A stretch of 64,000 bases of DNA from a virus, in IMG/VR virus record IMGVR_UViG_3300027848_000009, positions 32,001-96,000 of that record; one strand, 5' to 3'. Of this stretch, positions 22,177-46,275 are shown piece by piece. Position 1 is the first letter of the stretch, and each line of letters starts with the position of its first letter. Below the pieces are notes generated by a model, which saw only the letters and a program-made list of their open reading frames with translations, was not told the origin of the DNA and did not search any database. The position numbers and the translations under genes were made by a program.

Positions 22177-23844
22177 CTACAGGATTTTTTCTGATTTACC
22201 TTGCGGGGGATTTTGTTGGGCACTTTTCCAACGATTCCTTACATAGTTGGAACCGGTCGACCCAAAGAAGTCATCAAACGACTTGTCATCATTGATCTCA
22301 AAAGCACCATCTCGCGTACGCTTGGCAATGAGCGACGGTGGCTGAACACTATTGTTCCACAGGTAGAAGTCATCAAACATATTGGACGTAATCTGACGTG
22401 GAACAATAGGCTGCAACTCTCCAGCAATTTGGCTACCGAACCACCCCGGGAGAACCGGACCACCAGAAGCCTTATTTATTGCATTGCGAGAAGCTAAGCG
22501 TCGATCGGCCTCAGCGCCCGGAATGTAGACAAAGTGCCCAACCGTCGCGTAACCGTTGTTTCTCGCCCACTTCAGGTGCTCTGTCCGCTTACCCGTTCCG
22601 GTAACGACCACGTCCGTGCCCGCCTCACGGGCAGCATCCATCGCCCTGTCCGTGACGGCCCTCGAAGCAGGGTGAACTGCCGCAGCGCCACGACCACCGT
22701 CCCACCCCTCAAGTTGAGTCTTGATCCAGTCCGGATCAATGAAGGCAGCTGCATTGGACGCTGGAACATCCAGAGTCCCATCCTCGACAAGAGTGGTTTT
22801 TCCTGAGCCGGTTGTTCCGCCAACAAAATGTAGCGTCCTAGCGCCGCCCGGCTTGTTTCTGTGCTCAGGGGCGACCCGATTGATGATTTTAGATGTCGCT
22901 TCTCGGCCACCAGAACCGACCCTGCCGGACCTCATGCCTGAACGGAGTTCTCTATACTTATCTACCGTGTCGCCACTCAACGCCTTTCGGACGCTAGGGG
23001 GAGCCTCTGAGTACCAGCCGGGATCACTGGCGATCAGTTTCTCCCAAGACGCCGCTGACGACTTCTTCGTCTTCGTTGCTTTCTTGACCGCTTTCCCAAC
23101 TTTTCGTACCACTGCAGGTCGCTCGAAAGCTGTTGAGTCCTGAATCAGGCCGTCGTTGTCCCCATCGAGGGCCTTGGGGTCGTATGGCTGAGCGGAGCGG
23201 AGCGCCCTGCCGAGAGACTTGCCATACAACTCTTCGTTGAGAGAAACCTTGCGGCGCGGCTTTTTCTTACCGAGCCTGTCCTGCTCTTCTTCAAGGATTC
23301 GACGGGCCCTTTGACGTTCTAGCCGATCCCGGTATCTCCTGCCCAGCGCGGTCGATCCAGTGCGTCGAGCGTAATCGGTGATATTGCTACACGGTGTCCA
23401 TACTGTATTTCCGCCGGTGGAGCGGCGACGAGCTACCCCGATGCAGCCCATTTGGCGAGCACGCCTGCGGGCGGAGTTTATGTCAGTGAAAACGTCCTCG
23501 TCTCCATCGAATGGAATGGAGGACGCAGCTTTGCCTCCAACTGCTCCTGAAACAAGGCCGCCGCCAGACATTGTGTCGATTGCAATGACGCCACGCTCGC
23601 TGAGTTCTTCCCAGTTCTTTTTGTTCTTAGATTTCTTTTTGCGGCCCTTGCGTTCGCGAACGCTTTCGTAATCACGCATTCTAGAAAGGACAGACTTTTT
23701 TTCCTGTTCGTTTTCGAGACGCTCGTACTCTTCGTGGGTTTTGCAAGCCATCCACGTTCCGTTTGGGTGTTGATGAGCACCAGCACAGCCGAGTTCTTTG
23801 GCTCGGCGCAGAGCCGCTGCCCTGTTTGCGGTGTCTCCGGACAT
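22177..23844 (-). CDS. Head-module protein with C-terminal zeta-toxin-like P-loop kinase
   Basis: GGTTGSGKTT, IDPDWIK, VHPAS; two N-terminal GC..W..C modules; DGDNDG motif. Confidence 0.75.
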   Translation of the reverse strand: MSGDTANRAAALRRAKELGCAGAHQHPNGTWMACKTHEEYERLENEQEKKSVLSRMRDYESVRERKGRKKKSKNKKNWEELSERGVIAIDTMSGGGLVSGAVGGKAASSIPFDGDEDVFTDINSARRRARQMGCIGVARRRSTGGNTVWTPCSNITDYARRTGSTALGRRYRDRLERQRARRILEEEQDRLGKKKPRRKVSLNEELYGKSLGRALRSAQPYDPKALDGDNDGLIQDSTAFERPAVVRKVGKAVKKATKTKKSSAASWEKLIASDPGWYSEAPPSVRKALSGDTVDKYRELRSGMRSGRVGSGGREATSKIINRVAPEHRNKPGGARTLHFVGGTTGSGKTTLVEDGTLDVPASNAAAFIDPDWIKTQLEGWDGGRGAAAVHPASRAVTDRAMDAAREAGTDVVVTGTGKRTEHLKWARNNGYATVGHFVYIPGAEADRRLASRNAINKASGGPVLPGWFGSQIAGELQPIVPRQITSNMFDDFYLWNNSVQPPSLIAKRTRDGAFEINDDKSFDDFFGSTGSNYVRNRWKSAQQNPPQGKSEKIL

Positions 23845-23846
23845 GA

Positions 23847-24215
23847 TTAGGACTCGTTATAGTTGTAGTCCATCGAAAGACGAGCTACTTTCGGGTCGCT
23901 GATCTTCAGTTTCTCAAGTTTCGCTGCAGCCTTTTGAGCCTCAAAGGTCTCGTAGCCGTATCGCTTCCGGTACATCTCTGCTTCTTCAATTTGATCTTCG
24001 TAGTCTTCCCCAATGGCTGCGAACAAATCGTTATCTGGCGGATATGGCTTACCTGCCTCTCGTATTCGCATGATGAACTTTTGACGCATTTCTTGGTCAA
24101 TCGAAAAAGGCGGGTAGTCGATCGCGTGCGAGAAGCGTTTGTGGTAGTCACCGAACTTTTTGCGCTCCTCTACCTCCTCGTCGGTCAGATCAAGATCGTA
24201 GGTATTTACTGTCAT
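23847..24215 (-). CDS. Hypothetical protein (candidate immunity protein)
   Basis: Small gene tightly packed between two effector-like genes. Confidence 0.55.
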   Translation of the reverse strand: MTVNTYDLDLTDEEVEERKKFGDYHKRFSHAIDYPPFSIDQEMRQKFIMRIREAGKPYPPDNDLFAAIGEDYEDQIEEAEMYRKRYGYETFEAQKAAAKLEKLKISDPKVARLSMDYNYNES

Positions 24216-24217
24216 GG

Positions 24218-27200
24218 TTATCCTCTGGCTGCTTTGATCATTACTCTTGCTTCGATACCATCTATCGGCTGAGAGATATCAAGTACTGCGACCGTTCCGC
24301 GGTTATGGACAAGCACAACTTCGCCGTGATCGACGTAGTCGTATCCTAACATAGGGGCATAATAGCCAGCGTCGTGGGCGGACAATGACTGCATGTACCC
24401 CAGCGCATCCCACATTGGTTCGCGACGAGGGTCGTCTGGTTTCAACTTTGAATACTGATCAATCCATTGGTCATAAATTCTGCCCATATCTGACTGCTCA
24501 AGAAGTCCGGCAACTCCAAGACGAGTTTCTGCTTCTTTCAGACGTTTTGTTATTGCCGCCGCAGCGTTTGCTGGATCCTCATTTTTGAGAACATCGGTAC
24601 CCTGCTCAGAGATGAGCGATTCGACCTCTCTGGCCAACTTTTTGTGATCGTTCTGGATGTCATTGAGGTCTTTGCTGTCGATTCCGTTGCCGTCAGGATC
24701 AACGAATCCGACCATTCCCGTACCGTAAGCACCCCAGTGGCTACTCTTTTCTGAAGCCCAGTATTCTCCCACGCCGTAAGCACGAGCACCCTGACCCGGG
24801 ATGAAACGATCGTCGTCCTCCTTGTAGGAGTTGATGTAGCCGAGGGCCTTACTGTTCTCACGGCCGACGCCACGGTGGATGGGCGTCCATCCAGCATCAA
24901 TCAATGTTTCGAATTCGTTCTCCGATAGAAGCACCGGCTTACCGTTCATTTCCCCGTTCTCCCAAAGATTCAGGAGAAGATCGTCAAACGTTTCCTTGTC
25001 GATTTCGCCTTTGTCTCGCCCGATGATCCGAGTCTGAACAAAGGCGAGGAAGTCAATGAAATTGTCATCGACCTTCGGTTTTCCGCCTGCGTCACGGGCA
25101 AGTGGAGTTTTCTGACGTCGATCCTCGAACAGTTTGCGAATACTCTTCTCGGTACGCTCTCCACGCAACTTGCGTCGCGCCCTGCGGAGCAATCGCGCGA
25201 GCTTACGACGCGCCTTTTCGGTGGCAGCAATGTCGGACTGGGTGGCGGTACGACCGAGCAGAGAGTTCCGACGCATACGTCGGTTTTGGCGGCGCTGTTC
25301 GCGATCTGCATCGGGTTGCATGATGCGGTCGGCGAAGTCCCTCCGACGTTTGCCGGCCTTCTTCGCTGCCCTTTCGGAAATTGCACCCCCTACGGCGCTG
25401 GCACTTGATGAACGCTCATCGTTATAGAAGGTCGATTCCTGACCGAGGCCCACCGATGCCGCTGTTGGGACGTCCTTGTTTTCTTTGCGAGCGTCCGTCA
25501 TCACCCGCTTCTGCGTCGTGTCGTGGAGATGCTCCAGCATTGAGTAGTCGCCACGTAAGCGCATCTCGGCAAGAGTCTTGATGTCGTCTAGCTGCTTCCG
25601 CTTACTGGCGTAAACTTCGGGTGTGATTTCACCGTCTCCAAGACTTGAGTCAAGTGCTGACTGCAAAGTTTCCAGTAGGTCATTTTCCGGTACAATTTGA
25701 CGCATCTCGTCTGGCGTCATGCCGACTGTATATAGGCCGTCATCGAGCATGTTTTGACGAGCCCCATCGAGCGGGCCGTTTTTCGTGAGGTCGTAGAACA
25801 AGGCACCTTCTCGCGCCCTTGCTGCATCACGGACAGATGCTTTCTGAGCATCATTCAAGTTGCCCCAAACCTGACCGTCTCTGTCGTTGACCTTGGTTAT
25901 ACCAGCGACGCCTCCGCGTTTCTTCCGTGAGCGCATGCCGCCACCAAGGCCGCGTGTTGCAGTGACGTCCATTTGTGCTGCTTGGCGGTCGGCCCTATCA
26001 ATTCCTCTGTCGGGGGAAAAGCGGGGGGCCGCTTGGCGTGCTGAACGCATTCCATTTCCGGAGGGATCCTTTGGGGGTATCGAGTCGACCTTGCCGACCT
26101 TGCCGACACCACGATCCTTTCCGTTCTTCTTTGCGTTTCGTTCAAGATCGACGATTGCATCGCTGCCCCAGATCCGTCTGATCCAACGTTCGACATCGTG
26201 TTTTAAGGGCTTTCTGGGATTCCAATGCGTTCCCCGAAATAAAATACCTACTCCGATTTTTTCCTCGAACTTTGGGCTATTCGGTCCGGGCCACGTGCTG
26301 GTCACGTCGGTCCCCTGCTTCTTGGTCCAGTCGTACAGGCGGTCGGGAACAATAATTACCGACCCATTTCCGCCCGCATCGTGCAGAACAAAACCATTGG
26401 CCTCAAGCATTTTGAAGAAATTTTGGTCACCGGCCTCGATGCGTTTGTGTTGCGGACGTTTCGCCTCGCCGTTGAGGCCGAAGTAAAGTTCAACCGTCCG
26501 CTTGTTTGAGGTGTCGGTAATTTTGGGTAATTTTTCACTACTGACATTCGATGGATTGCCACTCGTTGGGTTCTTCGGGCTCTTCGGCGCCTTCGGCTTC
26601 TTCGGCCCCCTCCTTGATTGCAACCCGCTGATACTGCTAGAGCGACGCTCAGTCAGCGTGTCGAGAGTGTCATTCAGTATCTGAGAAAGACTAGAACGAT
26701 CCGAATTAGACATGCCATCCAAAGGCCCATCGAGTTCGAGTTGGCGCAGGGCTGCCCGGAGGCGCCCCATGAACTCTGCGTTCGAACCGTAAACACCCTT
26801 TCCATCGAGGACCGTAGCGGCTTCCACGACGGCACTACTAATTCCGTTATTCATTTGCGCGTAGCCACCAAAATTAACGTCGACGCCATCGAGTAGTTCC
26901 CGTACTTCTTTTCCGGTTGCGCGCTCCTTGGAAGGGCGCATGCCCTTCGATTTCCTTATCGATTCGAGACCAAGAGAGTCTTCGACACCACCACCGAATT
27001 CGTAGGTGTTGCCGCTGGGGGTTTCAACGAAAAGCGAATGGTGACCGCCACCGTAGTCGCCGCGGTTACCCCAACTTGCCTCTCGAAAATATTCGTATCT
27101 TGCACCTTTGAGAGGCCCCTTTGTGATGCGTCCACGAACGGTTTCGTCTTCTCCGGGTAGTTGTGCGTCCCAGCCGGTGCGGCGACGGGCTGGTGTGTAA

Positions 27201-29119
27201 TTGTTTGCGTTCTGCAAAATTTCGCCGGGGAATTCGCCGTAGAACTCTCGCACGTTTTCGAGAACTTCGTCGAAAACCATTTCCGTTTCATCGGGGTCAA
27301 ACCCGTCGCGCTCAGCCGTACGCCGCATGTAGTCGACGTTACGGTTGTGTGGGAAGATGTTGTCTGACTCACGTTGCTGCGTTGACCGTCTTCCTCGTAG
27401 GTCGCGTTGGAGTGCTCGCTGGCGACGAAGTTCGTCGGCGACAACCATTCCGTCGCGATAGTCGCCATCAAAATTATTGTCAACCCACTTTTCCCACTTT
27501 TGTGGAAACCATTGGTTTTCTATTTCGGTGGACGGGTCGATGCCGAGTTCGTCTCTAAGTTCTGCGAGGCGTTCATCCGTGGCGCTAATGTACGCGTCCA
27601 TCTCTTCGGGGGCTATGTCGTCAAGTGTGCGACGGCTACGAAGACCCGAGTACAGCTGGGCAATTTGGTCGTCGTCGAATCCAAGTTCGCGGAGACGCTC
27701 CTCGCGTCGATCCGCCATCCGCTTTATCCGTTCGGGGTCCTCAGGGATGATGTTGCCCTTAGAGTCTCGCTTGACTTGCCCGTCTGAGCGGGATAGGCGC
27801 TGTGAGCGCATACCGCCCGCCAGCAGCGGTTGCTCCCTGACCCACCGCTCCAACTCCGCGCCTGTCAGCAGCGGCCTATTTGGGTCCCTTGCCTCATCCG
27901 CTTCCATTTCCGCTAGCGATCGTCGAATTCCGGCGGCGGCGGCGGCGGCGAGCTTCTCGATCTCGTCGAACGGGAGGTCACCGGGGAGGTTGTCCCCGTA
28001 CTTCTCGGGGAGTCCGAGATTTGTCGGGTCGTCCCTGCGCCTCCGCGCCGTCTCCGCTCTCACCCCGGCGCCTCTGCGGGCCTCTTGTTCGGCTGTCAGA
28101 CCGAGGCTGCCGATTTTACCATCATCCCGTTGGCGCCGTTCGGAGCGACGGCCCTGAATCGATGAGCCATCAATGCGGCGAACCAAACTCGACTGATCCC
28201 CAAGCAGCTCCCGCAAGCGGTTCTCGTCGAGGGCCGCGGCCGGATTCCCGGCACGACGCTCCTTTTCGATTTCCATTGAATCGCCGTCAACAAGGGCGGA
28301 GACCCGTCGAGCCATATTCTTTGGGACAGTGAACCGTGGGATGATTGGACGTTCCATTCCGGGCACGCCCTCAAATACGATCCCGTCACTGTCCCCATCG
28401 ACCCGTCCGGTGATGTCAACGAAAGACATTCCTCGCGGTGCGGAACGAAGACCGCCTCCAACTTTTGGTCCAAGCGCTTTGACCTCTGGTTCGAATGGGC
28501 TCAGGCTGTATCCGCCGTGATTTAGGAGGGACTCAGATTTTGCTTTGAGTACTTCCTTGACTGTGCGGCGAAGAATCCCTGTTCCGTTCGCCATATTGGA
28601 AAGATCGCTACCTAGGTGCGGGTTATTGTCCCTCGACTTGAATCGCATTCCCTTGGTCTCGATTCCGAGACCATCAACCCGAACCTTGGCCATAACCGAC
28701 GAACGTGCGGTTTCGTTGAGCAGCGAGCGGACCTTGAATTCGACTGCGGTTTGGAAATGCTCGTCAGGGAAGAACGAGAGAGGGACGCCCGACATGTCGA
28801 GAATTTTGGTGTTCGCCCGAGTTTTAAATGAAGCCACGTGGACCATGTCATCTCGGTTTGGGAGCCTGACATCGAGATTCCCATCGATCATTTCGGCAAG
28901 AAGAGGCTCTTCCGACGCCGACAAGCCTCGGAAGGCGCCGACTTCGATCCCGTATGGGAGTTCGTCTTCGATGCTTTTTGTTTGGATGTCGTTATACGCT
29001 TCCGCCCATGCTTCGCCTTTCGCCGAAAGGCCATAACAGGTTTCAGCAACTTCATCTCGAACGACTAAGCCAAACAGCTTTCCCGAAATTTTGTCTTTTA
29101 CGATTGCGTACTGTTTCAC
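24218..29119 (-). CDS. 1633-aa multidomain protein with C-terminal ADP-ribosyltransferase-like domain
   Basis: IHRG..YGVGEYWA..GYDYV..VHNR at the C-terminus; DGDSDG motif; five G[LM]RS. Confidence 0.6.
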   Translation of the reverse strand: MKQYAIVKDKISGKLFGLVVRDEVAETCYGLSAKGEAWAEAYNDIQTKSIEDELPYGIEVGAFRGLSASEEPLLAEMIDGNLDVRLPNRDDMVHVASFKTRANTKILDMSGVPLSFFPDEHFQTAVEFKVRSLLNETARSSVMAKVRVDGLGIETKGMRFKSRDNNPHLGSDLSNMANGTGILRRTVKEVLKAKSESLLNHGGYSLSPFEPEVKALGPKVGGGLRSAPRGMSFVDITGRVDGDSDGIVFEGVPGMERPIIPRFTVPKNMARRVSALVDGDSMEIEKERRAGNPAAALDENRLRELLGDQSSLVRRIDGSSIQGRRSERRQRDDGKIGSLGLTAEQEARRGAGVRAETARRRRDDPTNLGLPEKYGDNLPGDLPFDEIEKLAAAAAAGIRRSLAEMEADEARDPNRPLLTGAELERWVREQPLLAGGMRSQRLSRSDGQVKRDSKGNIIPEDPERIKRMADRREERLRELGFDDDQIAQLYSGLRSRRTLDDIAPEEMDAYISATDERLAELRDELGIDPSTEIENQWFPQKWEKWVDNNFDGDYRDGMVVADELRRQRALQRDLRGRRSTQQRESDNIFPHNRNVDYMRRTAERDGFDPDETEMVFDEVLENVREFYGEFPGEILQNANNYTPARRRTGWDAQLPGEDETVRGRITKGPLKGARYEYFREASWGNRGDYGGGHHSLFVETPSGNTYEFGGGVEDSLGLESIRKSKGMRPSKERATGKEVRELLDGVDVNFGGYAQMNNGISSAVVEAATVLDGKGVYGSNAEFMGRLRAALRQLELDGPLDGMSNSDRSSLSQILNDTLDTLTERRSSSISGLQSRRGPKKPKAPKSPKNPTSGNPSNVSSEKLPKITDTSNKRTVELYFGLNGEAKRPQHKRIEAGDQNFFKMLEANGFVLHDAGGNGSVIIVPDRLYDWTKKQGTDVTSTWPGPNSPKFEEKIGVGILFRGTHWNPRKPLKHDVERWIRRIWGSDAIVDLERNAKKNGKDRGVGKVGKVDSIPPKDPSGNGMRSARQAAPRFSPDRGIDRADRQAAQMDVTATRGLGGGMRSRKKRGGVAGITKVNDRDGQVWGNLNDAQKASVRDAARAREGALFYDLTKNGPLDGARQNMLDDGLYTVGMTPDEMRQIVPENDLLETLQSALDSSLGDGEITPEVYASKRKQLDDIKTLAEMRLRGDYSMLEHLHDTTQKRVMTDARKENKDVPTAASVGLGQESTFYNDERSSSASAVGGAISERAAKKAGKRRRDFADRIMQPDADREQRRQNRRMRRNSLLGRTATQSDIAATEKARRKLARLLRRARRKLRGERTEKSIRKLFEDRRQKTPLARDAGGKPKVDDNFIDFLAFVQTRIIGRDKGEIDKETFDDLLLNLWENGEMNGKPVLLSENEFETLIDAGWTPIHRGVGRENSKALGYINSYKEDDDRFIPGQGARAYGVGEYWASEKSSHWGAYGTGMVGFVDPDGNGIDSKDLNDIQNDHKKLAREVESLISEQGTDVLKNEDPANAAAAITKRLKEAETRLGVAGLLEQSDMGRIYDQWIDQYSKLKPDDPRREPMWDALGYMQSLSAHDAGYYAPMLGYDYVDHGEVVLVHNRGTVAVLDISQPIDGIEARVMIKAARG

Positions 29120-31080: not shown

Positions 31081-31721
31081 TCTCTGCAGTCGTCGTCTCG
31101 CGTGAACTCGTTTACGAGTTTTGTTCCATCAGACATCTCGACCTCAAGTTCCCAGTTATCGTAATCGCGGAGATAGTTGGCAAAGGTTGGCTCCATTGCG
31201 ACAAAGTCGGTTAGCACAGAAAATGCATGCTTGTAATCCATTTCGGTTACGACAGGTGGAATACCGTCGTCGAATCCAAGGCTTTTCATTTCTTGAAAAT
31301 CGCTAAAGAAGACATCATCGCTGTCTTCCCAGTATCCTTCGAGAGACTTCTTGCCCTTTTTGAACCGTTTCTTCATCCTGCGATTGAAGTCGCCGTCGCT
31401 CCAATTCTTCAGTTTCTTGAGTTTCCCTTTACAGTTCTTCATGGTTGGATGGTGGCAGCCTTCATTCGGCCACAAACCAGTAGTTTCATGATGAAGCCAA
31501 GCGCATATTCTGCTCAACGGATACAACTCCGGATGGTTCTTCAGGATTACCCTGCAGCGCGTGAAGCCTCCCGGCTTCCTCATGATTGGGCGCCAGTAGC
31601 GAAGAAGTCGCTCTAGGTTGCCGCGTCTTGGTCCACGTCCGCGAAGGACGTCGCCAGTGATACGCTCCTGAGGGAGGTCCAAAAGTATATCTTGAATTGC
31701 TTTGATCTCTAGATCAATCAT
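31071..31721 (-). CDS. Head-module hypothetical protein
   Basis: LLRYW..PGGFTRC..ICAWLHHETTGLWP. Confidence 0.6.
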   Translation of the reverse strand: MIDLEIKAIQDILLDLPQERITGDVLRGRGPRRGNLERLLRYWRPIMRKPGGFTRCRVILKNHPELYPLSRICAWLHHETTGLWPNEGCHHPTMKNCKGKLKKLKNWSDGDFNRRMKKRFKKGKKSLEGYWEDSDDVFFSDFQEMKSLGFDDGIPPVVTEMDYKHAFSVLTDFVAMEPTFANYLRDYDNWELEVEMSDGTKLVNEFTRDDDCRECA

Positions 31722-31738
31722 GATACCTACAGTTTAGT

Positions 31739-32140
31739 TTATTCAGTGCCTTCTTCGGCGTTGGAACCCGAAGTCAACCGCTTGTGCCGCTCTTGTGATG
31801 CAATGCGTTCTTCGAGGGATCGAGTTGCTATAAGTTTTTTTGGGCGCTGCGATTTAGGTACATTTAGAAAACCGTACCTGAAACTGTTCCAAATCTGCTC
31901 ATCTGTCTCGTCCCTGAATAGATTGGTATGAGAAGTGTAAGAAATGTTGTAATCGTTATACATTTCTCGAATCAGAGTTATACGTTTTTCTGTATGCGGA
32001 TCGCTACCAAACTCAATTTTGCGGAAAGCACCAATAATTTGGTCGCGCGACAAAACCTTTTCGGCCTGCGATCGGGTCACGCCAAGCACTTTTTCCACTT
32101 TCTCGTTCCAGTCAATTAACCACTTTGGTTCTGAACCCAT
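31739..32140 (-). CDS. Hypothetical protein (candidate immunity protein)
   Basis: Small, more AT-rich gene directly after the zincin gene. Confidence 0.55.
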   Translation of the reverse strand: MGSEPKWLIDWNEKVEKVLGVTRSQAEKVLSRDQIIGAFRKIEFGSDPHTEKRITLIREMYNDYNISYTSHTNLFRDETDEQIWNSFRYGFLNVPKSQRPKKLIATRSLEERIASQERHKRLTSGSNAEEGTE

Positions 32141-32147
32141 AAAATCC

Positions 32148-37600: not shown

Positions 37601-39685
37601 CGACTTCCCATTCATCCACTCGATTTGCTGATCAATCAGATCACTGTCGATGACGCCCATTTTCTGAAGAGCACGAAGTTCGGTCATGCCCTCCATGAGC
37701 ATGACTGCAAGGGTGATCCCTGATTCTTGTCTGAGCGGGCCCTCTCCGTTTTCTCCCCAGAATTCCTTGACTTTGTCTTGGTAGTATTTACCGGACAGGA
37801 TGTGAAGCATGCTTCCTTCGAAGGCATGGATGCCGACGGGAGGAAAACCCTCCGGCAGGTATTCCGCTGGAAGGAGACCCTGTATGACGCTGTTCAATGC
37901 CTCCCCCCACTGCTCGTTACTCCACTGATCAGGTGGATCCGTCAAAGCCACCACCCCATTTTTACCCACCGCATAGGTGACACCACGATTGTTCCAATCG
38001 TCAATGACCAGTTTCTGAACAGCGGCGTACTGCTGCAGATGGCCCATTTCGTGGTAACCAATATGTCGCGCCTGCGCTTGGAGCGATCCATGCCGCGCGG
38101 CAGAAAGGTCAGACGCGTACCTGTCCTTCCAACGCTCTAGATCGATCTCGCCCTGAAAGAATTCTTGAAGCGCCTGCCATTGCTGACCCTCGCTGCCGGT
38201 TCCATCCGTTGAGACGATCCTGATCTTTCCGTCGTCCAGATAGAAGGCTCCATCATCATCGATCATTGGTCGCAGAACTTGGACGAGCGGGTTGACCTCC
38301 ATGGTCATGCCGAAACCAGTAGTGTTTTGGTAACTAATTGGAGAGAGTTCCGCTTCGGTCAACCAGTAATTTTCGAGATTCCCATTTTCGCGACCGGCAT
38401 CGTATGGCCTGAAAGTTATTTTTTTGAGGAGGCGCACTGATTCAGGGTCGTCATGGAACTCGTGGAGGATGGACTCAAGAGTCCCTCTGAGTACATCGTG
38501 ATGTCGATCAACGAGGATCTCCACCATCTTTGCCGCGTCCGCTGGGTCAACTGACGGATCAACGTAGTCGAGGTAATCCTGACGAAGCCTCGCATCCAGA
38601 TTCTGGAGATTCTCCAAAAGAGTTTTGTTCGGGTCGTAGACGGAATCTCCAAAAATGCCGGAGAACAAGCCTTCGAATTCGACATCCCACATGCCGTTGT
38701 TCCTCAGACCCAAAATGGTGTCCCACAAGTCTGCGTTTAGGTCGGTATCACCAGTTGCAGACACCATCTTTCGCAACGTGTCCAGCGCTGCATCTTTTTC
38801 CGCAAGCCGTTGATCGAAAACGCTTTTTGGGGCAAGCATCTGCGAGGCCGCTTCCATTGCGCGCCTGTTGGAAGCAAAACGCGGATCATCCGCATCAGCT
38901 TCCAGCATCTCCATGTACCGCCCCATCGCTACATGGTTGTTGAACCAACTACCTACACGACCAAGCCGTCGGATGGCGGATACTGGGGCCACGAAACAGT
39001 TGGTCCCGAACTCGTCCGTGAACTGGTTTGCTGCCGGAGTTCCGGGAGGACAACGGAATTTTCCTAGTTCGTCGACGATGACACCAATTGCTCTCGCTGA
39101 GCGGGAACCGAGACTGCCGCCGGGGACAACTGAGCCGATGCTCCTACCGAGAGCTTTCGTTTCCACTCCGTCAGGAAGAGACTTGACGTTTACCGTTCGC
39201 TTCGAATCTTCGATCCTTGCGCCAGTTCTTGGGTCCGCTTCGTATTCGTTGACAATAATTTTCGGCGTCTTTTTTTTGAAGGCAAGCGCCTCCATCATCC
39301 CCAATCGCCGCTCGTCTGGTCGAAGTTCCTTGGGGGGAGAAACCCACCCGAAGTTTGGTTCATCGCCCTTGCGGAGCATATCCTTTGCGGTCACATGCAA
39401 TTTTAGAACATCGCCGGGTTGACGCGTCTTGTTCGGCGCAAACCTTACTTCTGGTATGGTCTCCTTGACACCGGAACCGGCGGTCCTCTTCTGGGACTCC
39501 TTGTCGTTCCCGCCGACGGCGTCGCCGATGAGCGCTTTGACGGACCACTCTGCATCAATCTCTGATCTGGTGCTGGAGATTGCAGCGTGAATACGGAACT
39601 GTTGGCCTAGCCACTCGTAATCACGACGGTGGGTGCCTAAAACTCGTTCCGAATGTATATATCTGGTGGCTCGGGTTAGGGCCAT
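34643..39685 (-). CDS. 1680-aa polyvalent protein: zincin, degenerate VIP2-like ART and DUF3626-like regions
   Basis: GYHEMGH..EGMTE; IVVPKGSRG..LTLPPGSF; RPLIG..YG..VLRPEV..GD. Confidence 0.6.
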   Translation of the reverse strand: MALTRATRYIHSERVLGTHRRDYEWLGQQFRIHAAISSTRSEIDAEWSVKALIGDAVGGNDKESQKRTAGSGVKETIPEVRFAPNKTRQPGDVLKLHVTAKDMLRKGDEPNFGWVSPPKELRPDERRLGMMEALAFKKKTPKIIVNEYEADPRTGARIEDSKRTVNVKSLPDGVETKALGRSIGSVVPGGSLGSRSARAIGVIVDELGKFRCPPGTPAANQFTDEFGTNCFVAPVSAIRRLGRVGSWFNNHVAMGRYMEMLEADADDPRFASNRRAMEAASQMLAPKSVFDQRLAEKDAALDTLRKMVSATGDTDLNADLWDTILGLRNNGMWDVEFEGLFSGIFGDSVYDPNKTLLENLQNLDARLRQDYLDYVDPSVDPADAAKMVEILVDRHHDVLRGTLESILHEFHDDPESVRLLKKITFRPYDAGRENGNLENYWLTEAELSPISYQNTTGFGMTMEVNPLVQVLRPMIDDDGAFYLDDGKIRIVSTDGTGSEGQQWQALQEFFQGEIDLERWKDRYASDLSAARHGSLQAQARHIGYHEMGHLQQYAAVQKLVIDDWNNRGVTYAVGKNGVVALTDPPDQWSNEQWGEALNSVIQGLLPAEYLPEGFPPVGIHAFEGSMLHILSGKYYQDKVKEFWGENGEGPLRQESGITLAVMLMEGMTELRALQKMGVIDSDLIDQQIEWMNGKSDINSPVTPSGPPKWSPAPPGNTPPPTPPNIPATNPPNSPPGSPVPDDTELSIIPSEITWMVDKETGEILSTQGPWDLMERYFIARHGGRPDDKRGGNQEIPRKSIARTWGWPDVPYSQLGADGLDGRFKVLQTDADQLLERIDAGEQLDDDDTARLWMASKGMAQIADENARRRNASDKIRQERSSKFERNDSGKIFRKSKKPYKKNAGDDDEIYDDDRYRQAMIQTEQSIPGRYPDAPKSWTEDPAGHGSEQSMEAMRSMNNVEQAAMTKDLKERNKSYVHGGTDLEDAVKRAAEVRGQEVDNTGPHPSPSKEIAETILPVLDAMERNPVSETVEGYVIFDDGDDLIPIDTYIEAEDGRSFQLLLDGLRSKRSRGFVELQVVSSREESNIDYANSGNRTKIVVPKGSRGMWRENEDGENSKLTLPPGSFDVVEDVDGVQTMIPSRQESSSDFAGRLLGDMSEWGNPGSVAEMRERSDLERVLRGRQVEQPRHVRSHFSQDSAVRTKMIKRRNDMDRGFADNSIEPFNPDFSARDQTLDRSTATSMILTADRLADGDLSDNLRTADGREFSMTPETRDFIERSGSDAVTKKVAEAAEQWHEGVDRRVRSRVSSDELNDLLETGSPTRADRSMMMAEFERNNGWPTGAPPDSRPLIGHATHAVHDNIVDDLLERSGRGGFPALRRSGFFDHSGDSPHGPLSPYGESDIVLRPEVSMRSAYALGDILRDPAAMTRLNDTDPRRYASQLAVSRRGEGDTALRMGNLLHAGLTGDFRGVQMRDMPPEVEQNGMMTRLPRSFGSADIPMETAIAGGFDIADIERIDVPIDSLGWKRLELRRGDIDFQASGTAQNLKRAGWSDAEIDFLLESLSNGRLPNIKSANLLRQHRAANADRIRFDRAGVNVRYTNADGIDLFSRRDLTSSTDSGARIGRVRNVEEALLVRLDDEVSARQATLRPIVQQGMRNMRGSKSLDSHSPVYEAALREVGE

Positions 39686-39708
39686 TGGGACCCACTCTTT
39701 CCCGGCGC

Positions 39709-41061
39709 TCAGGCGAGACCGTCGACGTCGCCGTCCTCGTTGGTTAGCATTTCGAACTCCGCAATCGACTGCATGAACGCGGCATCAACGTCCGAAAGGA
39801 CATCTGCCTTCTTTGAGGCCGACCAGTTGGCGGGAAGCATGTCTTCCTTGCCCATTTCACGAGCGCGCTTCATGATGTGCTTCTTCGCCGTCTCCTTGTC
39901 GGCTGCGCGACCGTGGGCCATGATGGCGTTACGGAGATCGTCGACGTTGGAGATAGGGAACGAACCGTCAGACATGGCGAGGCCCTCTTTGGCCATCTCC
40001 TCACGCTGTTCCTCGTTGAAGGCGCGCTTGAGGGCGATCTCTGCGGCTTCCGCCTCGATTTCTTCTGCCTCGTCCGGCTCGTAAGCGTCGTATCCAAGAA
40101 CCTCGCCGTCGAGGGCGACGAACACGTCGTACGACTTTCCGTCAATTCCATCAATCTCGACTGCGTAGCAGTCAAAACCTTCGAAGGTGTCTGGTTCGAC
40201 CGCCATCACTGAACCATCGAGCCCGTCGAGGCTTTTCACTGCGATATCGCATGCCTCGGTGAAGCCGATAAGTTCCGTTTCCTCGTACAAAGACTTCTGC
40301 TCGAAAACTGAATCGTCGAGGCGATGGAAGGCGAGAACTTCGCCCGTAGTTCCTTCCATGTAGACCTCGATCGCTCGCCCATCCTTGACTTGAAGATCGA
40401 CGATGTAGACGTCGCTGCTCTGGGCGTAGCCGGAATCAATAACCGTTCCGTCGAACTCGGCCTCCGCTTTGCCTTCAATCTCGATGAGACCCGGCATCCC
40501 CTTCTCCGACATGCACCCGCCCGGGCAGTCGTCGCACATGCCGCTGCTTCCGGAGTAAACCTTGCGATCGATTGCGCAAAGGAATCCGGATTTACCGACG
40601 TTTGCTGTTTTCTTGCCCATCGTATTCAGGCGACGCTTGCGGGCATCACCCATCCAGCGCTTGGCGACGGGGGCGTCCTCTTCGTCTTCGTCGTCTTCGT
40701 CGTCTTCGTCGTCTACGGCGGTGTCGTCGTCGGTCTCGGGATCTGACTCGACGTCGGTGGCGTCTTCCTCGTCGGCCTCGGGATCAACGTCGGGGGCGTC
40801 CTCGTCTTCCTCTTCTTCGTCGTCAATTTCAGAGCCAACGGCGGCGAGTGCCTTTTCCACCAACTCGTCCTCGTCGTCGATTTCTTCCATTTCCTCATCG
40901 GAAACTGGAACCATCTTCATGGAAACGGGTATTGCTCCGCACTTTCCACAGACTTTCGCGCCCGCCGTGTATCCGCACTCATCTCCACTGAGACCTTTTG
41001 CGCACTTAAGAACACCACCGTCAGCGTCAATCTTGACAACTGCTTTCTCGTCGTAACTCAT
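39709..41061 (-). CDS. Acidic protein with PepSY-like repeats and a phage head-associated C-terminal domain
   Basis: AAGGAG RBS; Cys clusters; Y-x-V-E/D..GEVL twice; DGSFPISNVDDLRNAI..GRA..KKHI. Confidence 0.6.
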   Translation of the reverse strand: MSYDEKAVVKIDADGGVLKCAKGLSGDECGYTAGAKVCGKCGAIPVSMKMVPVSDEEMEEIDDEDELVEKALAAVGSEIDDEEEEDEDAPDVDPEADEEDATDVESDPETDDDTAVDDEDDEDDEDEEDAPVAKRWMGDARKRRLNTMGKKTANVGKSGFLCAIDRKVYSGSSGMCDDCPGGCMSEKGMPGLIEIEGKAEAEFDGTVIDSGYAQSSDVYIVDLQVKDGRAIEVYMEGTTGEVLAFHRLDDSVFEQKSLYEETELIGFTEACDIAVKSLDGLDGSVMAVEPDTFEGFDCYAVEIDGIDGKSYDVFVALDGEVLGYDAYEPDEAEEIEAEAAEIALKRAFNEEQREEMAKEGLAMSDGSFPISNVDDLRNAIMAHGRAADKETAKKHIMKRAREMGKEDMLPANWSASKKADVLSDVDAAFMQSIAEFEMLTNEDGDVDGLA

Positions 41062-41245
41062 CGTTGCTGGCTCCTTACAGTGCATGTTCTTGAGTAGACA
41101 ATCATTTTGAAAATACTACACCTTCACATGGCATCATAGCCTTAAGGCGTGGAGACCACGCAGAAGTATTTGGGGTAATTTTCACTAAGACCGTTTGTCA
41201 AATTGTACCCTAGATTGGTGTTGGTTGAGGGGAAAGCCCAAATAA

Positions 41246-44200
41246 TCAATTGTTCGGGATGCTGACAGTCCTTCCTTGAGAGTTTGTCCTCTCCTGTGTC
41301 CGGCTAGTTATTTCTTCAGTTGTCCCCGTTATGAATGTTCCCATCGCTGCTTCAGCAAAAATATCAAGGAGCCTCGTGAAAATGTCTACCCTTGATCCGC
41401 CTGTTTCCATTTGTCGATCGACCACGACCATGAGGGCGTCCATTATCTGGTCTACCTCGTCTTGGGTGACCGTAACTGTTCCGACGTTCGTCCTGCGGTC
41501 ACCAAGTTTTCCGGAGTCTTGACGGCCCATAATGCCCTGCAAGAGTCTAAGCGCGTCAGATGTTTGTCTGTCGCTGCTTGAGCGTGCTTCTCTAATTTCC
41601 TTGTCGAGAGAATCTTCAATCTTTTTGAAGAATGTTGCCTCTTCAATAATCTGGGTGCGACCCTTTTTCTCGGAGCGAAGGCCGCCAACGCTTCTCGAAT
41701 TCGCATATTCCTGAACAGATTCACTTGGCTTATAGTTGCGCATTGAGCGCATGCCAGCCTCTGAAAGGAAACGCGCAGCCCCCGTTCCGGTATTAGGGAT
41801 ATCGTCTTCATCAATCCCGCCGACCCGGAGGGCAGCGGCCGAGTCGCCCTGCTCGATGGCGCCATTACGTTGGTAGCCGTCGACCATCTCGCCAATAACC
41901 GTATTCAACGATCGTGCCGCTTGCATACTCGCAGACTCTTTTGCTGTGAGTTCCCTGCCTTGGAACTGCTCCATGTATTCATCGAGCGTGGCTTGCATTG
42001 ATTCGAGCATCGTCATCGTGACCTCGTCGCCCTCGTTGGTAAGATCAGAAAGAGCATCCCAAACCTCTTGATGATCCTCTGATGCATCACCGTCAGCAAC
42101 GGCGTCGGCGAGACGTGTTTGGTTCCCTGAGACACGTTTGTCAACTTTAGATAGATCCCGTTTGCGTTGTTCCGTCCATTGGGCCGGGGAGATTTCTGGC
42201 GACTGTTCCTCTGGAACTGCGTCTCCAGTGGGCTGTTCGGGTGGAGCGGATGGACTTGGTGCTGGCGGAGTATTGGCCAATTCCTGAGTGATTTGACGTC
42301 GCCGAGACTGGCGTTCTTCCCTGCGCTCCTGCTCCTCTATCTTCTTGCCTATTTCTGTGGAAAGGCGCCGGAAATCGACTTCCTTCATGCCGCTCTTCTT
42401 GGGAGAATAAAAAGCATAGAGTTCGTCAAACTGCTGATCTGGGGGTAGTTCATCCCATCCTTCGGGTTTGATTTCTTCCCACTTTTTGCCCACATTTTGG
42501 CTGTTTGCAATTCTGGTACCCATTGGGCGCCCGGGCCGGTTGGCTGTTTCTGCTACAGCCGACGAACGCTCCTCCGGGCCGGGTCGCTTACTGGAACGGA
42601 GACCGCTTCCGCGCGCCGACTGCGCTCCGTCAAGAATTGACCACCCCTTGGGGGAGATGTCGTCAACTTCTAGACCAGCAAACCGATCCCTGATGGGCGG
42701 CTCGGATTCAGACTGGCCCCATTCCAGAAGGCTGGACATGTTGCGCTTTGTCATGCCGGGAGGTGTTGGTCTTTTACCAGCAAAACCACCGCCCTTCTTG
42801 AGATTGGGTGATTCGTATGTCCCATTTGGCGACAGGGCGGCAAAGTCGATTATGTCTTTTGCCGCACGCATGGGGGCTGGGACTTCGCTGGACTCGTTCC
42901 GCTTTGCGTACTCGTTGAACCCTGACTGAATTCTTTGAGCCAAATCTTGAGGCATCTTTTCAGAGTTGCCTTGGAGCCATTTGTCGAGTTCGGAAAACGC
43001 TGTAATTCCCTGAGCATTTTTCTGCTCCCGTTCCAATGAGCGACGAATGTCGCCGCGCTCATCAGCGTTGAGTTTCAGGGAGACGCCGTTTTCTGGAATC
43101 CGAGAGTTGCTCCGGGGTCCCATGGAGTTCATTTTCTGACGGTCCGGGTCGAGATTGCCGTCAACCCATTTTCCGTTCCTTGCTCCACCCTTCATCCGTG
43201 AAAGAAAGTCCGACAGTTCAAGGATGGAACCCGAATCATCGTCGCCAATGCGAGAGTTCAGGGTGTCGATAGCAATCTGCAAATTTGAACGATCAATTAT
43301 CGACGGTCCTGTTTTGGGGTCGATCTGAGATGCGAGCGATCGCAGCGTATCTGCTACCGGTCGGTCAAGTGATGCGTTGTCGACAAAATCCTGAAGCGTC
43401 TCAGCGTAGGAGATACGATCACGTGCAGGCGCCGCCAATTCGATCTGATCGCTGTTCTTCCGCGACCTCATTCCACGTCCACGATTTTTCCGAGTAAACC
43501 ACTCTGCCGCCTCGTTCACTCCGTCGCGAAGTTTTTTGCTTTTATCTCTAGTGCTGTAAGGGCTATTGTTTGCGGCGCCGGTCAAGGTTGGTTGTTGGAC
43601 GAATTCTCTCGCCTCGTCAGCCGACGGGATTCTTTCATTGATCCAACTGATGTCCTCTTCAAGAATGGACCGCTCGACTCGATTGTCATCAAGATCGTTG
43701 ATCGCCTCAAGCGTCTGATCCATGTAGTAGGCGTAGTCGCCCTCTTCGATCACGTCGGCGTCGAAGTTGTCTTTTAGCCACTTTTCTGCCGCCGCCTCCG
43801 GATTACTTGAGTTGCGGATCTCATCAAGTTCATATTTGTTCATTGACAGAGAGCGAGTAGCGGAACGCAGTTGATCGCGCATATCGCTTTCGTCTTTATT
43901 CAGATCACTGAGTTTCTCCTCGACCTGCTCTGCGTAATCAGCCAAGTCGTCAACGTGATTGCTGATTGAAGAAATTCGATCTTCGGATTCCCCAAGTTCG
44001 GACAAGTCGTCTAGGAACCATGATTCGTAATTATCTGAAAGGCGTTGAGCGTCTTCTGGGGTGAACTTGTCTGCTCCACCCAATCGATTTGCCAATATGG
44101 CTGTCGCCAGTTCCGTATTGGAACGACCTTGTTCTGTTTCAAGAATAGACATTGCCCATAAGTCGTCGTACGACTTTCCGGCACGCTTCTTCATGGCTTC

Positions 44201-46177
44201 GACTTGTGAAGAAACGATCTCTTTAGCTTCGTCAAGCTCGTCCTTGATTTCGGCGAAATCCATTTTTTCAAGACGATTCTTATATGTGTTTTTACGCATA
44301 GACCGAAGACCTTCATCTCCGGTTCCAGTGTTTGCGGATGGCGCCTGCGGAAGGTTCGGTAACTTTGGTGTTGACGGCGTGGCTGGGCGCTCAAAGGGCG
44401 AGCCCTCCTGAACCAAGCCATCGTTGTCGCCGTCTATTGCGTTTGGATCGAACCGTTGCGTTACGGCCCGCAGGGACCTAAGTGCTTTTTTTGAACCACC
44501 CCCAAAGATGTTCTTGCTGGCATTATAGATTGCCTGCATGAACTCTTCGGTTGTCCCTGAGAGCACTTTGATTCCGTGCTCGGTCACCTCGACTTCGGTT
44601 TTGTGATACTCGAAGATTGGATCGAGGGCTTCTTTGACCCTGAAAACCTGCGAGGGGTCGCACTCAATGATGACGTTTTGCTGTTCCTCATTGAAACCCG
44701 ACATTTCTGACATGTATTCGAGTGACTTCTCGTCGTCGTCGTGATGCTTCTCTCGCTGACGGAAAATGTCGGCCATCGTCGGCTCGGGCGTTTCCTGAGC
44801 GTAAGCCCTACTCGTGGAATGATTCGGCTTTGTCCGCATAGAGATCGCTGGCATCCGGGGAGGGACAACGGCACTCATGGGCTGGAAGGTCATCTGAGGA
44901 ACGACCCTTTCCGGCTTTCCGAACATGTACTGCTGCGTTTCCCGGTCCCAATGATACGGAAGGCGGTAGTACTTCTTCATTCCTTCTTTCATCTTCGCAA
45001 AGACGACGAGGTTCCCGGTTGCGGTCATCAATTGGATTGGAGCCTGAACCCGTGAAGCGATCTCTATTTCAAGAGAATTTCGCTTTTCTGGGCTAAGAGG
45101 CTGAGCCGCTCCGTCGGAGAAGATGTCACGATTCGGTTCCGGCTTCCTTGCCGAAATCATCTGCATCATCATGTGATTCTTCTCGGAGACATCCGTGATC
45201 TCGTCATCAAAATCGATTTCGTCGCCCCAGACGCTCTTCACTTGCTCAAGTACGTGATCGAGAGCAATTTCCTCAAACTCTTCCTCGAAAAATGATTCGT
45301 AATCAGAGAAATCGAACTCTTGTTTCCATTCAGCATCTTTTTTCTTTGAGCTTTCGTAGCGCTCAAGGAGTCGGCGACCCTTTGCGGCAAGTTTTGCGGC
45401 ATCGCTACGGTCCTGAGGGGATGGTTCTCCCCATGCTGCAGCAGAAAGCGCTAGTCGGGTCGGCTTGCCGTCCGGTTTCTTCATTGGGCCCGAAGGATTC
45501 GTGAAGAATCGCGTCAAGAAAGAGCCCTTCCTGCACATCTTCTGCGGCGTGTTTGCGGCTCCGCGAACTCCCGGCTTCAGGTTTGCGCCATCCGTCTGAG
45601 CGAAGTGACTGCGCCCCTCGGCGGTCAGACCACCCTCAGGGTCTTTGAGTTTGGCTTGCTTGATTGAGATCGTTCCAGTCAACTGGTTCGCTCCGTGGAG
45701 AACCGGGCTGACCTCGTAAAGTTCGACTTCCTTTAGGACGTTCGCCTGCTTTGAAGGGTCGAAAACTGCGTCGAGCGTTTTGTATCCAATTGACCATTCC
45801 TGCTCAAGGCCGAAGAATTGGACATTGGAAAACGCCTCGCGACCTTTTTCTGAGTTCAGGTTGAACTGAACCTTCGCGTACAGTCCGCCAATTCCTGCCC
45901 TTTTCATCTTTTCTGGGAGACGAGGGTCGGAGGCTGGAACCTCATAAATCTCAAGGATTTTCCCGATTGGGTCGTTCCAGTTGTGTCCCCATACGACGCG
46001 CGGCTTCCTGCGCTTCAGGCTTCCGTCGAACACTCCGGGTGCGCAAATATCACCGACGGAGTCCTTGTTGCCGATTCCGGCGACGAAACACTCCACGATG
46101 CCCTTGGCATCATTTACGGAAACTTGACCGGCGGGTGCCGCTTTGAACTCGATATCATCGAATTGTGAATCAGGCAT
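41246..46177 (-). CDS. HK97-type prohead protease fused to a ~1450-aa extension
   Basis: GNKDSVGD, WGHNWNDPIG, EWSIGY, LYEVSPVLHGAN in the first ~170 aa. Confidence 0.85.
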   Translation of the reverse strand: MPDSQFDDIEFKAAPAGQVSVNDAKGIVECFVAGIGNKDSVGDICAPGVFDGSLKRRKPRVVWGHNWNDPIGKILEIYEVPASDPRLPEKMKRAGIGGLYAKVQFNLNSEKGREAFSNVQFFGLEQEWSIGYKTLDAVFDPSKQANVLKEVELYEVSPVLHGANQLTGTISIKQAKLKDPEGGLTAEGRSHFAQTDGANLKPGVRGAANTPQKMCRKGSFLTRFFTNPSGPMKKPDGKPTRLALSAAAWGEPSPQDRSDAAKLAAKGRRLLERYESSKKKDAEWKQEFDFSDYESFFEEEFEEIALDHVLEQVKSVWGDEIDFDDEITDVSEKNHMMMQMISARKPEPNRDIFSDGAAQPLSPEKRNSLEIEIASRVQAPIQLMTATGNLVVFAKMKEGMKKYYRLPYHWDRETQQYMFGKPERVVPQMTFQPMSAVVPPRMPAISMRTKPNHSTSRAYAQETPEPTMADIFRQREKHHDDDEKSLEYMSEMSGFNEEQQNVIIECDPSQVFRVKEALDPIFEYHKTEVEVTEHGIKVLSGTTEEFMQAIYNASKNIFGGGSKKALRSLRAVTQRFDPNAIDGDNDGLVQEGSPFERPATPSTPKLPNLPQAPSANTGTGDEGLRSMRKNTYKNRLEKMDFAEIKDELDEAKEIVSSQVEAMKKRAGKSYDDLWAMSILETEQGRSNTELATAILANRLGGADKFTPEDAQRLSDNYESWFLDDLSELGESEDRISSISNHVDDLADYAEQVEEKLSDLNKDESDMRDQLRSATRSLSMNKYELDEIRNSSNPEAAAEKWLKDNFDADVIEEGDYAYYMDQTLEAINDLDDNRVERSILEEDISWINERIPSADEAREFVQQPTLTGAANNSPYSTRDKSKKLRDGVNEAAEWFTRKNRGRGMRSRKNSDQIELAAPARDRISYAETLQDFVDNASLDRPVADTLRSLASQIDPKTGPSIIDRSNLQIAIDTLNSRIGDDDSGSILELSDFLSRMKGGARNGKWVDGNLDPDRQKMNSMGPRSNSRIPENGVSLKLNADERGDIRRSLEREQKNAQGITAFSELDKWLQGNSEKMPQDLAQRIQSGFNEYAKRNESSEVPAPMRAAKDIIDFAALSPNGTYESPNLKKGGGFAGKRPTPPGMTKRNMSSLLEWGQSESEPPIRDRFAGLEVDDISPKGWSILDGAQSARGSGLRSSKRPGPEERSSAVAETANRPGRPMGTRIANSQNVGKKWEEIKPEGWDELPPDQQFDELYAFYSPKKSGMKEVDFRRLSTEIGKKIEEQERREERQSRRRQITQELANTPPAPSPSAPPEQPTGDAVPEEQSPEISPAQWTEQRKRDLSKVDKRVSGNQTRLADAVADGDASEDHQEVWDALSDLTNEGDEVTMTMLESMQATLDEYMEQFQGRELTAKESASMQAARSLNTVIGEMVDGYQRNGAIEQGDSAAALRVGGIDEDDIPNTGTGAARFLSEAGMRSMRNYKPSESVQEYANSRSVGGLRSEKKGRTQIIEEATFFKKIEDSLDKEIREARSSSDRQTSDALRLLQGIMGRQDSGKLGDRRTNVGTVTVTQDEVDQIMDALMVVVDRQMETGGSRVDIFTRLLDIFAEAAMGTFITGTTEEITSRTQERTNSQGRTVSIPNN

Positions 46178-46275
46178 GGTTTCTCTCCCTTTGATCATTA
46201 TCAATGATAAACGACTGGAGAGTAGGCTGATGCAACTACGGCATTGTAATTATTCTGTTTACGGAAACAGGGGTG

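Follow-up and report, generated by a model that had tools for sequence, protein, structure and literature searches.

A short tag repeated in the giant head-module proteins of an uncultured phage is a probable cleavage site of cargo polyproteins

We analyzed a 64,000-nucleotide window (bases 32,001 to 96,000) of the 155,887-bp IMG/VR virus record IMGVR_UViG_3300027848_000009, which represents an uncultured ~156-kb phage; positions are those of the window unless stated otherwise. Five giant proteins of 555 to 1,680 amino acids (aa) are encoded on the minus strand of this phage's head module, in the interval that runs from the prohead protease gene, itself one of the five, to the major capsid protein (MCP) gene. 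They carry a short tag, G-[LM]-R-S, which probably serves as an endoproteolytic processing site that splits these head-module cargo polyproteins. Comparison of the window proteins with Pfam and PHROG profiles described the five as follows.

41246 to 46204, minus strand: p1652, a fusion polyprotein with an S78 prohead protease and five tags (Pfam Peptidase_S78, aa 36 to 179; DUF6321, aa 187 to 258; PHROG head maturation protease)
34643 to 39685, minus strand: p1680, a cargo protein with orthologues in relatives and no Pfam or PHROG match
32148 to 34646, minus strand: p832, a cargo protein with a shared block and a HEMTH motif, both located below
24218 to 29119, minus strand: p1633, a cargo polyprotein with orthologues in relatives
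22177 to 23844, minus strand: p555, with DUF3721, the shared block, and a Zeta-toxin-like kinase domain (22480 to 22854) (Pfam)

An initial annotation of the window had counted 12 copies of G-[LM]-R-S in four of these proteins, and all 12 are present on the minus strand exactly where it placed them: in p555 (aa 303), p1633 (aa 223, 436, 492, 1023, and 1061), p1680 (aa 1063), and p1652 (aa 632, 911, 1201, 1484, and 1508). Composition alone predicts 0.32 copies in the four proteins, which total 5,520 residues (Poisson P = 1.5e-15), and in 1,000 shuffles of the same proteins the count averaged 0.32 and never exceeded 3. The enrichment over the shuffled background is about 40-fold, and GMRS and GLRS are the two most overrepresented tetrapeptides in these proteins. 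The annotation had noticed no copies in the other genes of the window; consistent with this, six-frame open reading frames of at least 80 aa in the whole record yielded three further matches, none of them in the window. Its remark that basic residues usually follow the motif also held, with R or K at position +2 in 11 of the 12 sites, and the extended form of the tag is G-[LM]-R-S-x-[RK]. The strict sites, together with the variants discussed below, are listed here with their standing in orthologue alignments and in AlphaFold2 models, where confidence is given by the predicted local distance difference test (pLDDT).

44294 to 44311, minus strand: tag GLRS-MR, p1652 aa 632; AlphaFold2 coil of pLDDT <50
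43457 to 43474, minus strand: tag GMRS-RK, p1652 aa 911; kept in orthologues, coil in the AlphaFold2 model
42587 to 42604, minus strand: tag GLRS-SK, p1652 aa 1201; kept in orthologues, coil in the AlphaFold2 model
41738 to 41755, minus strand: tag GMRS-MR, p1652 aa 1484; kept in orthologues, coil in the AlphaFold2 model
41666 to 41683, minus strand: tag GLRS-EK, p1652 aa 1508, immediately before the conserved C-terminal domain; the orthologous site follows the spelling of each lineage
36482 to 36499, minus strand: tag GLRS-KR, p1680 aa 1063; GMRS in relative L003, within an insertion missing from three orthologues
34709 to 34726, minus strand: variant GMRN-MR, p1680 aa 1654; GMRS in orthologues
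33993 to 34010, minus strand: variant GMAS-IR, p832 aa 213; GMRS in three orthologues
28436 to 28453, minus strand: tag GLRS-AP, p1633 aa 223, within the shared block; orthologue alignment
27797 to 27814, minus strand: tag GMRS-QR, p1633 aa 436; orthologue alignment and AlphaFold2
27629 to 27646, minus strand: tag GLRS-RR, p1633 aa 492; orthologue alignment and AlphaFold2
26927 to 26944, minus strand: variant GMRP-SK, p1633 aa 726; GMRS or GLRS in orthologues
26609 to 26626, minus strand: variant GLQS-RR, p1633 aa 832; GMRS or GLRS in orthologues, and AlphaFold2
26036 to 26053, minus strand: tag GMRS-AR, p1633 aa 1023; orthologue alignment and AlphaFold2
25922 to 25939, minus strand: tag GMRS-RK, p1633 aa 1061; orthologue alignment and AlphaFold2
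22921 to 22938, minus strand: tag GMRS-GR, p555 aa 303, between the shared block and the Zeta-toxin domain; orthologue alignment

The codons used differ between sites, as had been observed, and they vary here as well as in three sister lineages. Conservation acts at the level of protein rather than DNA, and a DNA-level motif was ruled out on these grounds. Paralogous repeats were also ruled out: an all-against-all BLASTP comparison of the head-module proteins returned only a short shared block and no similarity around the tags. Since the flanks cannot be aligned between sites, we conclude that the tag is a short linear motif rather than a repeated domain. The description of the tag-bearing proteins as unrelated needs qualification; the bulk of each cannot be aligned with the others, but all share that second short block.

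We then compared the sites with those of relatives; 306 IMG/VR contigs encode relatives of the protease fusion, and 435 encode relatives of the capsid protein. In orthologues of p1652 (56 to 70% identity), the five sites are kept as G[LMI][RQA]S-x-R, and the flanks change and gap around them. Similarly, in orthologues of p1633 (37 to 57% identity), p555, and p1680, site positions are kept amid diverging flanks. Overall, orthologues with positionally kept sites span 37 to 73% identity. Across 160 related loci, the strict motif was enriched 10- to 20-fold in exactly five families (p555, p1633, p1680, p832, and p1652), with observed and shuffled counts in the five families of 36 and 2.2, 32 and 1.8, 19 and 1.6, 46 and 4.4, and 3 and 0.2. 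No tag was found in the MCP, portal, p654, p458, p216, or p122 families of the same loci.

The same alignments were used to judge variants of the motif, in place of a position-specific scoring matrix that was built from the 12 sites and proved overfitted, missing conserved variants. Three of the four variants named in the initial annotation, GMAS (p832 aa 213), GLQS (p1633 aa 832), and GMRN (p1680 aa 1654), correspond to GMRS or GLRS in orthologues; by this comparison they are genuine sites, as is GMRP. The fourth, GPRS (p1652 aa 1029), is weakly conserved and doubtful as a tag site. The look-alikes QLRS778, TLRS953, and AMRS952 are one-off sequences that are not kept in orthologues, and they were rejected.

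To place the sites relative to folded domains, we used AlphaFold2 models of two stretches, built from shallow alignments (six sequences), in which low pLDDT serves as a proxy for disorder. In the model of p1652 aa 600 to 1652 (mean pLDDT, 67), all five sites fall in coil of pLDDT <50 between confident helical or alpha/beta blocks, and segments of that kind make up 28% of the model. In the model of p1633 aa 150 to 1200 (mean pLDDT, 54), where low-confidence segments make up 45%, all seven conserved sites (five strict and two variant) lie in segments of pLDDT <50. In total, 12 of 12 modeled conserved sites (10 strict and 2 variant) are in such coil. The nonconserved look-alike GRRS576 of p1633 sits inside a confident helix. 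These models support the earlier statement that the motif mostly occupies linkers, in that the sites map to predicted coil between folded blocks. A Foldseek search of PDB found nothing at E ≤ 0.001 for either cargo model.

The suggestion that the motif delimits exchangeable modules is borne out directly by gains and losses at the tags. The orthologue of p1652 in L004 has an extra module of ~134 residues between GMRS and a second copy, GFRS. The orthologues of p1680 in L003, L005, and L009 continue for about 650 to 810 further residues beyond the tag, at a point where p1680 of the window reads GMRN and ends after 23 more residues; the extension of the L003 protein has no homologue in this genome. 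In p1652, residues 1 to ~612 and ~1511 to 1652 are conserved in the family, and the variable middle begins ~20 residues before the first tag. The conserved C-terminal part is a candidate capsid-targeting tail.

41249 to 41674, minus strand: conserved C-terminal domain of p1652, ~140 aa, kept in 9 of 11 lineages inspected

The spelling of the tag differs between lineages and is uniform within each genome. In L012, G[LF]AS occurs 14 times in one 2,457-aa protease polyprotein. L061 and L082 have GFAS (eight copies), L064 and L074 have GLAS, L060 has GLSS-G (10 copies), and L009 has G[LM]RS without the basic trail. Both TCN and AGY serine codons are used in the sister lineages, indicating that selection on the protein maintains each spelling. 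Even a single orthologous site, the one just ahead of the conserved C-terminal domain of p1652, reads GLRS, GLAS, or GFAS according to lineage. Concerted respelling of many sites implies a common reader that acts in trans. As judged from these comparisons, the general, family-wide form of the tag is G-hydrophobic-x-Ser, of which G-[LM]-R-S-x-[R/K] is the local version in this phage.

The second element shared by the tag-bearing proteins is a block of ~45 residues that consists of KALGR..., a segment resembling [GA]-L-R-S, and FDPxAxDGDxDG-x-VQEG-x-PFERP. Each of the five proteins has one copy, and p458, encoded next to p1652, ends in a remnant.

44369 to 44509, minus strand: shared block of p1652, aa 566 to 612 (..ALRS..FDPNAIDGDNDGLVQEG.PFERP), which ends the family-conserved N-terminal module
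39709 to 41085, minus strand: p458, the product of a head-module gene, without a tag; its C-terminal end is the block remnant DGDVDGLA (39712 to 39735)
39038 to 39148, minus strand: degenerate copy of the shared block in p1680, aa 180 to 216
34077 to 34229, minus strand: shared block of p832, aa 140 to 190
28325 to 28477, minus strand: shared block of p1633, aa 215 to 265
23101 to 23229, minus strand: shared block of p555, aa 206 to 248

In every relative inspected, no feature at the end of the N-terminal module is as conserved as the block. It is unchanged across the different spellings of the tag and precedes the first tag (the tag at aa 223 of p1633 lies inside it). The block, p1680, and p1633 had no match among 50,697 GenBank phage records. 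We regard the block as a candidate capsid-loading or Ca-binding element. The initial annotation had offered a packaging or sorting tag as one meaning of G[LM]RS, and we infer that this idea fits the block better than it does the motif.

We propose that the five giant proteins would be made as polyproteins and then taken into the procapsid. p1652 would enter as the protease itself, with its conserved C-terminal tail, and the other four possibly via the shared block. Cleavage at the tags would yield about 20 pieces of 23 to 1,066 aa; the Zeta-toxin-like kinase of p555, for example, would be freed from the N-terminal 306 residues. The scissile bond might lie between R and S (x and S in the general form), mirroring the cut between K and S in HK97 gp5 and the preference for Ser at P1′ in SPN3US, or it might follow the Ser, mirroring the hydrophobic-x-P1 rule of T4-type head proteases. 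We give an even chance to this scheme as a whole, in which the polyproteins are packaged and cut at the tags, with an S78 protease as the most likely reader.

Among the possible readers, the S78 protease at the N terminus of p1652 is the likeliest candidate, and we put its chance at a little short of even.

45668 to 46099, minus strand: S78 protease domain (Pfam PF04586), with His74 in WGHN (45983 to 45985) and Ser138 in WSIG (45791 to 45793)

The domain matches Pfam PF04586 with an E value of 7.4e-11 and PHROG 80 with an E value of 6.5e-29. His74 and Ser138, which we take from established knowledge of HK97 gp4 to be the catalytic residues, are invariant in 13 relatives, and the WGHN and WSIG motifs align with the FNHK and GMSVG stretches of gp4. 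The protease is fused in cis to the polyprotein, with the first tag of p1652 ~20 aa beyond the conserved N-terminal module. Outside the cargo proteins, the sequence that comes closest to the tag is in the MCP of this phage.

20740 to 22065, minus strand: HK97-fold MCP with an N-terminal scaffold (delta) region (Pfam Phage_capsid, E = 2.5e-45)
21766 to 21801, minus strand: GLRE-ARTRYK-SV of the MCP, aa 89 to 100, the near-match, at the scaffold/shell junction

HK97 gp5 is cut between K103 and S104. In the MCP, GLRE-ARTR adjoins YK/SV(GE), which aligns with the NK/SL(GS) cut position of gp5 (slashes mark the cut of gp5 and the position aligned with it).

Several points weigh against the S78 protease as the reader and against the scheme around it. 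The S78 domain is 73 to 95% identical across lineages that spell the tag differently. In alignments of aa 11 to 190 and of aa 11 to 690 (20 nonidentical sequences), no column segregates the R-, A-, and S-type spellings; with no residue in the first ~680 aa that tracks the spelling, coevolution of the S78 domain with the tag is unsupported. The GLRE near-match at the MCP junction is confined to the clade of the window and is missing in other R-type lineages. A junction sequence resembling the tag of its own lineage looked promising in two clades (GLRE with R-type cargo, [HQ]LSS with GLSSG cargo), but the remaining R-type lineages and the A-type lineages do not show one. Across the family, the junction has no enrichment of hydrophobic-x-[S/A] (33 versus 27.7 expected). 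The conserved HExxH domains of p1680 and p832, described below, offer an alternative putative reader. The linker assignments come from models of shallow alignments, with low confidence standing in for disorder. Finally, the phage is uncultured, and cleavage, packaging, and ejection of its cargo proteins are predictions.

The tape measure bears on the same question. A 1,374-aa Gly-rich protein encoded at genome positions 95305 to 99427 (from window position 63305; L163:306-4427) is probably the tape measure protein. Tape measures of sister lineages are enriched for their own tag (4 GLAS versus 0.21 expected; 2 G[LF]AS versus 0.2), and one orthologous position reads GMSS here and GLTP, GLRA, GLAS, or GFAS in other lineages. 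Since a protease confined to the capsid should not reach the tape measure, the presence of the tag in these proteins weakens the case for the S78 protease. In this genome, the tape measure has one GLRS (aa 860, outside the window), which is unconserved and at chance level (P = 0.07); we rejected it as a tag site.

A less likely alternative, though one that deserves to be taken seriously, is that the tag is cut by a zinc metallopeptidase borne on the cargo itself (the HExxH region at aa ~545 of p1680, aa ~433 of p832, or both), either before assembly, while still in the cytoplasm, or once ejected into the next host.

38039 to 38053, minus strand: HEMGH in p1680 (aa 545), a zincin-like motif
33336 to 33350, minus strand: HEMTH in p832 (aa ~433), a zincin-like motif

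In 12 p1680 orthologues that span the different tag spellings, the H, E, and H of HE(M/L/I)xH, the Q that follows, and two downstream E residues are invariant, and p832 and its L004 orthologue share a conserved HEM(T/G)HVAH. A profile search of Pfam, PHROGs, and PDB gave no match for the HExxH region, which may be a new zincin-like domain; the peptidase fold is thus a reading of the motif. Six relatives (L100, L105, L116, L155, L017, and L080), though not this phage, carry ArdC-type HELxHWTG metallopeptidase modules in the same cargo polyproteins, which ties the family to the polyvalent proteins, where metallopeptidase (MPTase) domains are predicted to carry out processing (Iyer et al. 2017, PMC5512222). 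A reader of this type could explain the lineage-specific spellings more easily, since the HExxH domain diverges between lineages far more than the S78 domain does, and the tagged tape measures of sister lineages likewise favor a reader outside the capsid. However, in several lineages nearly all tags lie in the S78-headed polyprotein, and the HExxH domain might just as well be an effector directed at the cell wall or the host.

It is more improbable still that the tag is not cut at all and acts as a docking, hinge, or packaging element in the linkers (a contact for scaffold, DNA, or a chaperone), with the giant proteins remaining intact in the virion. Conservation and linker location do not on their own require cleavage, the R or K after the tag in this lineage could contact DNA, and giant proteins can be packaged unprocessed, as the N4 virion RNA polymerase shows (PMC5512222). 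However, the basic trail is missing from other spellings (GLSSG and GFAS-S/T), and the shared block, which is distinct from the tag and much longer, would suit docking or targeting better. The tags bracket inserted modules and directly precede conserved terminal domains, like polyprotein junctions, and up to 14 repeats of a 4- to 6-residue peptide within a single chain are what one typically sees with protease sites. An artefact of chance, of paralogous repeat domains, or of a DNA-level signal, for which one might cite the strict site inside the block of p1633 and the ALRS in the blocks of p555 and p1652, is effectively refuted by the enrichment (P ~ 1e-15), the unalignable flanks, the varied codons (TCN and AGY included), and the positional conservation.

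We therefore retain endoproteolytic cleavage of the polyproteins as the favored function of the tag. A broader generalization is offered tentatively, and we consider it less likely to hold than the scheme for this phage: that a clade of uncultured phages of ~100 to 170 kb (at least 300 IMG/VR contigs) uses a genome-specific "cleavage code," with one spelling per genome across the cargo, and across the tape measure too in some lineages, that is respelled between lineages. Together with the ~45-aa loading block, such a code would be plug-and-play, so that a module between two tags would be loaded, freed, and delivered to the next host, and the tag and its reader (the S78 protease or the new zincin) would coevolve as a private pair.

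The nearest functional parallels are found in jumbo phages and in T4. Head and ejection proteins of SPN3US lose N-terminal propeptides of 20 to 254 aa at (A/S/G)-x-E, a motif read by the prohead protease, which favors Ser at P1′ (PMC10052503). As in SPN3US, phiKZ, and 201phi2-1 (gp245/gp175), one short motif is common to many proteins, which in this phage are predicted to be head-internal, with several copies per substrate (PMC10052503). The protease of SPN3US and phiKZ also processes itself and removes long propeptides (PMC10052503), and the shared block resembles the long N-terminal propeptides of SPN3US ejection proteins in position. In contrast, the protease of those phages is of the T4 type, is not fused to cargo, and recognizes a motif that ends in Glu, whereas here it belongs to Pfam S78 and the tag is G-[LM]-R-S. 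Their substrates are separate proteins that mostly lose one propeptide, and the putative substrates in this phage are chains of two to eight modules. Cleavage in SPN3US and phiKZ has been proven by mass spectrometry, whereas here it is predicted from sequence.

The internal proteins of T4 (IPI to IPIII and Alt) have an N-terminal capsid-targeting sequence that is cut off by gp21 at (L/I)-x-E (PMC9024508; see also PMC9026906). The arrangement of targeting element, protease site, and cargo delivered with the DNA is like the one proposed here. However, the T4 sequence has ~10 to 20 aa at the extreme N terminus, and the candidate block has ~45 aa and lies 140 to 610 residues into the chain. There are also differences in protease family and motif, and the putative substrates here are giant multimodule proteins. 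The likeness to the T4-type targeting sequence and gp21, or to phiKZ-type processing, is functional only.

Polyvalent proteins (Iyer, Burroughs, Anand, de Souza, and Aravind 2017; PMC5512222) include a zeta-toxin-like kinase among their modules, and HExxH peptidase-like domains are predicted to release those modules. The proteins of this phage are likewise giant multimodule proteins encoded beside virion genes, with swappable effector modules and a Zeta_toxin domain in p555. The HExxH domains here match no peptidase profile, and the polyvalent-protein study describes no repeated linear linker tag, lineage-specific spelling, or fusion to an S78 prohead protease (PMC5512222). No head-module protein had a Pfam or PHROG match to a MuF domain.

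The head module itself is of the HK97 type, with a Pfam S78 protease and an HK97-fold capsid protein that has an N-terminal scaffold region. HK97 has its portal, protease, and capsid genes side by side, with a protease of 225 aa that bears no cargo. Here, the module is opened by giant cargo genes, ~19 kb of which separate the protease gene from the MCP gene, and the protease forms the N terminus of a chain of 1,652 aa. Judged by the MCP (47 to 49% identity), the Gordonia phages DalanDe and GMA6 (Bendigovirus) are the nearest cultured relatives. They too have a protease fusion; that of DalanDe, encoded next to the MCP, is a 1,633-aa "capsid maturation protease" (gp27; L002 3943-8844). In gp27, however, the protease is near the C terminus (about aa 1118 to 1298), with long acidic low-complexity tails, whereas in p1652 it is N-terminal; gp27 shows neither enrichment of the tag (3 versus 4.8 expected) nor the DGDxDG block.

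Processing of capsid-internal proteins by a head protease, with propeptides trimmed from separate proteins at motifs that end in Glu, is known from T4 and phiKZ-like jumbo phages. The present case differs in its protease family and motif, in having up to eight modules chained together (at least 14 tags in relatives), in the fusion of cargo to protease, and in the lineage-specific spellings. No description of the tag or of cargo polyproteins headed by a protease turned up in a full-text literature search of incomplete coverage. Should the cuts prove real, the tag would be a rule by which thousands of residues of "hypothetical giant protein" could be parsed into functional units. It would also be a natural phage example of a private code of protease and site, and possibly a design principle for loading foreign proteins into capsids. 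The prediction from polyvalent proteins that modules are released by proteolysis is made directly testable with defined peptides.

The head-module genes on the minus strand lie in the order portal, p1652, p458, p1680, p832, p133, p216, p654, p1633, p122, p555, and MCP.

46276 to 48273, minus strand: portal protein, 665 aa, without a tag (Pfam Phage_portal, E = 3.9e-49; no tags in 59 family members)

The gene for the large terminase (48555 to 50987, plus strand) is divergent from the head module and has a LAGLIDADG/Hom_end (intein-like) insert at about aa 285 to 349. A gene for a class II (B12-dependent) ribonucleotide reductase (17968 to 19893, plus strand) adjoins the module. The G+C content of the window falls from ~62% to ~52% at about 12 kb (positions 1 to 12000 versus 12000 to 64000), with a strong GC/AT skew between 12 and 16 kb. 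Within the GC-rich part, positions 5983 to 6963 encode a Tet/JBP-type 2-oxoglutarate-Fe dioxygenase, which suggests DNA base modification.

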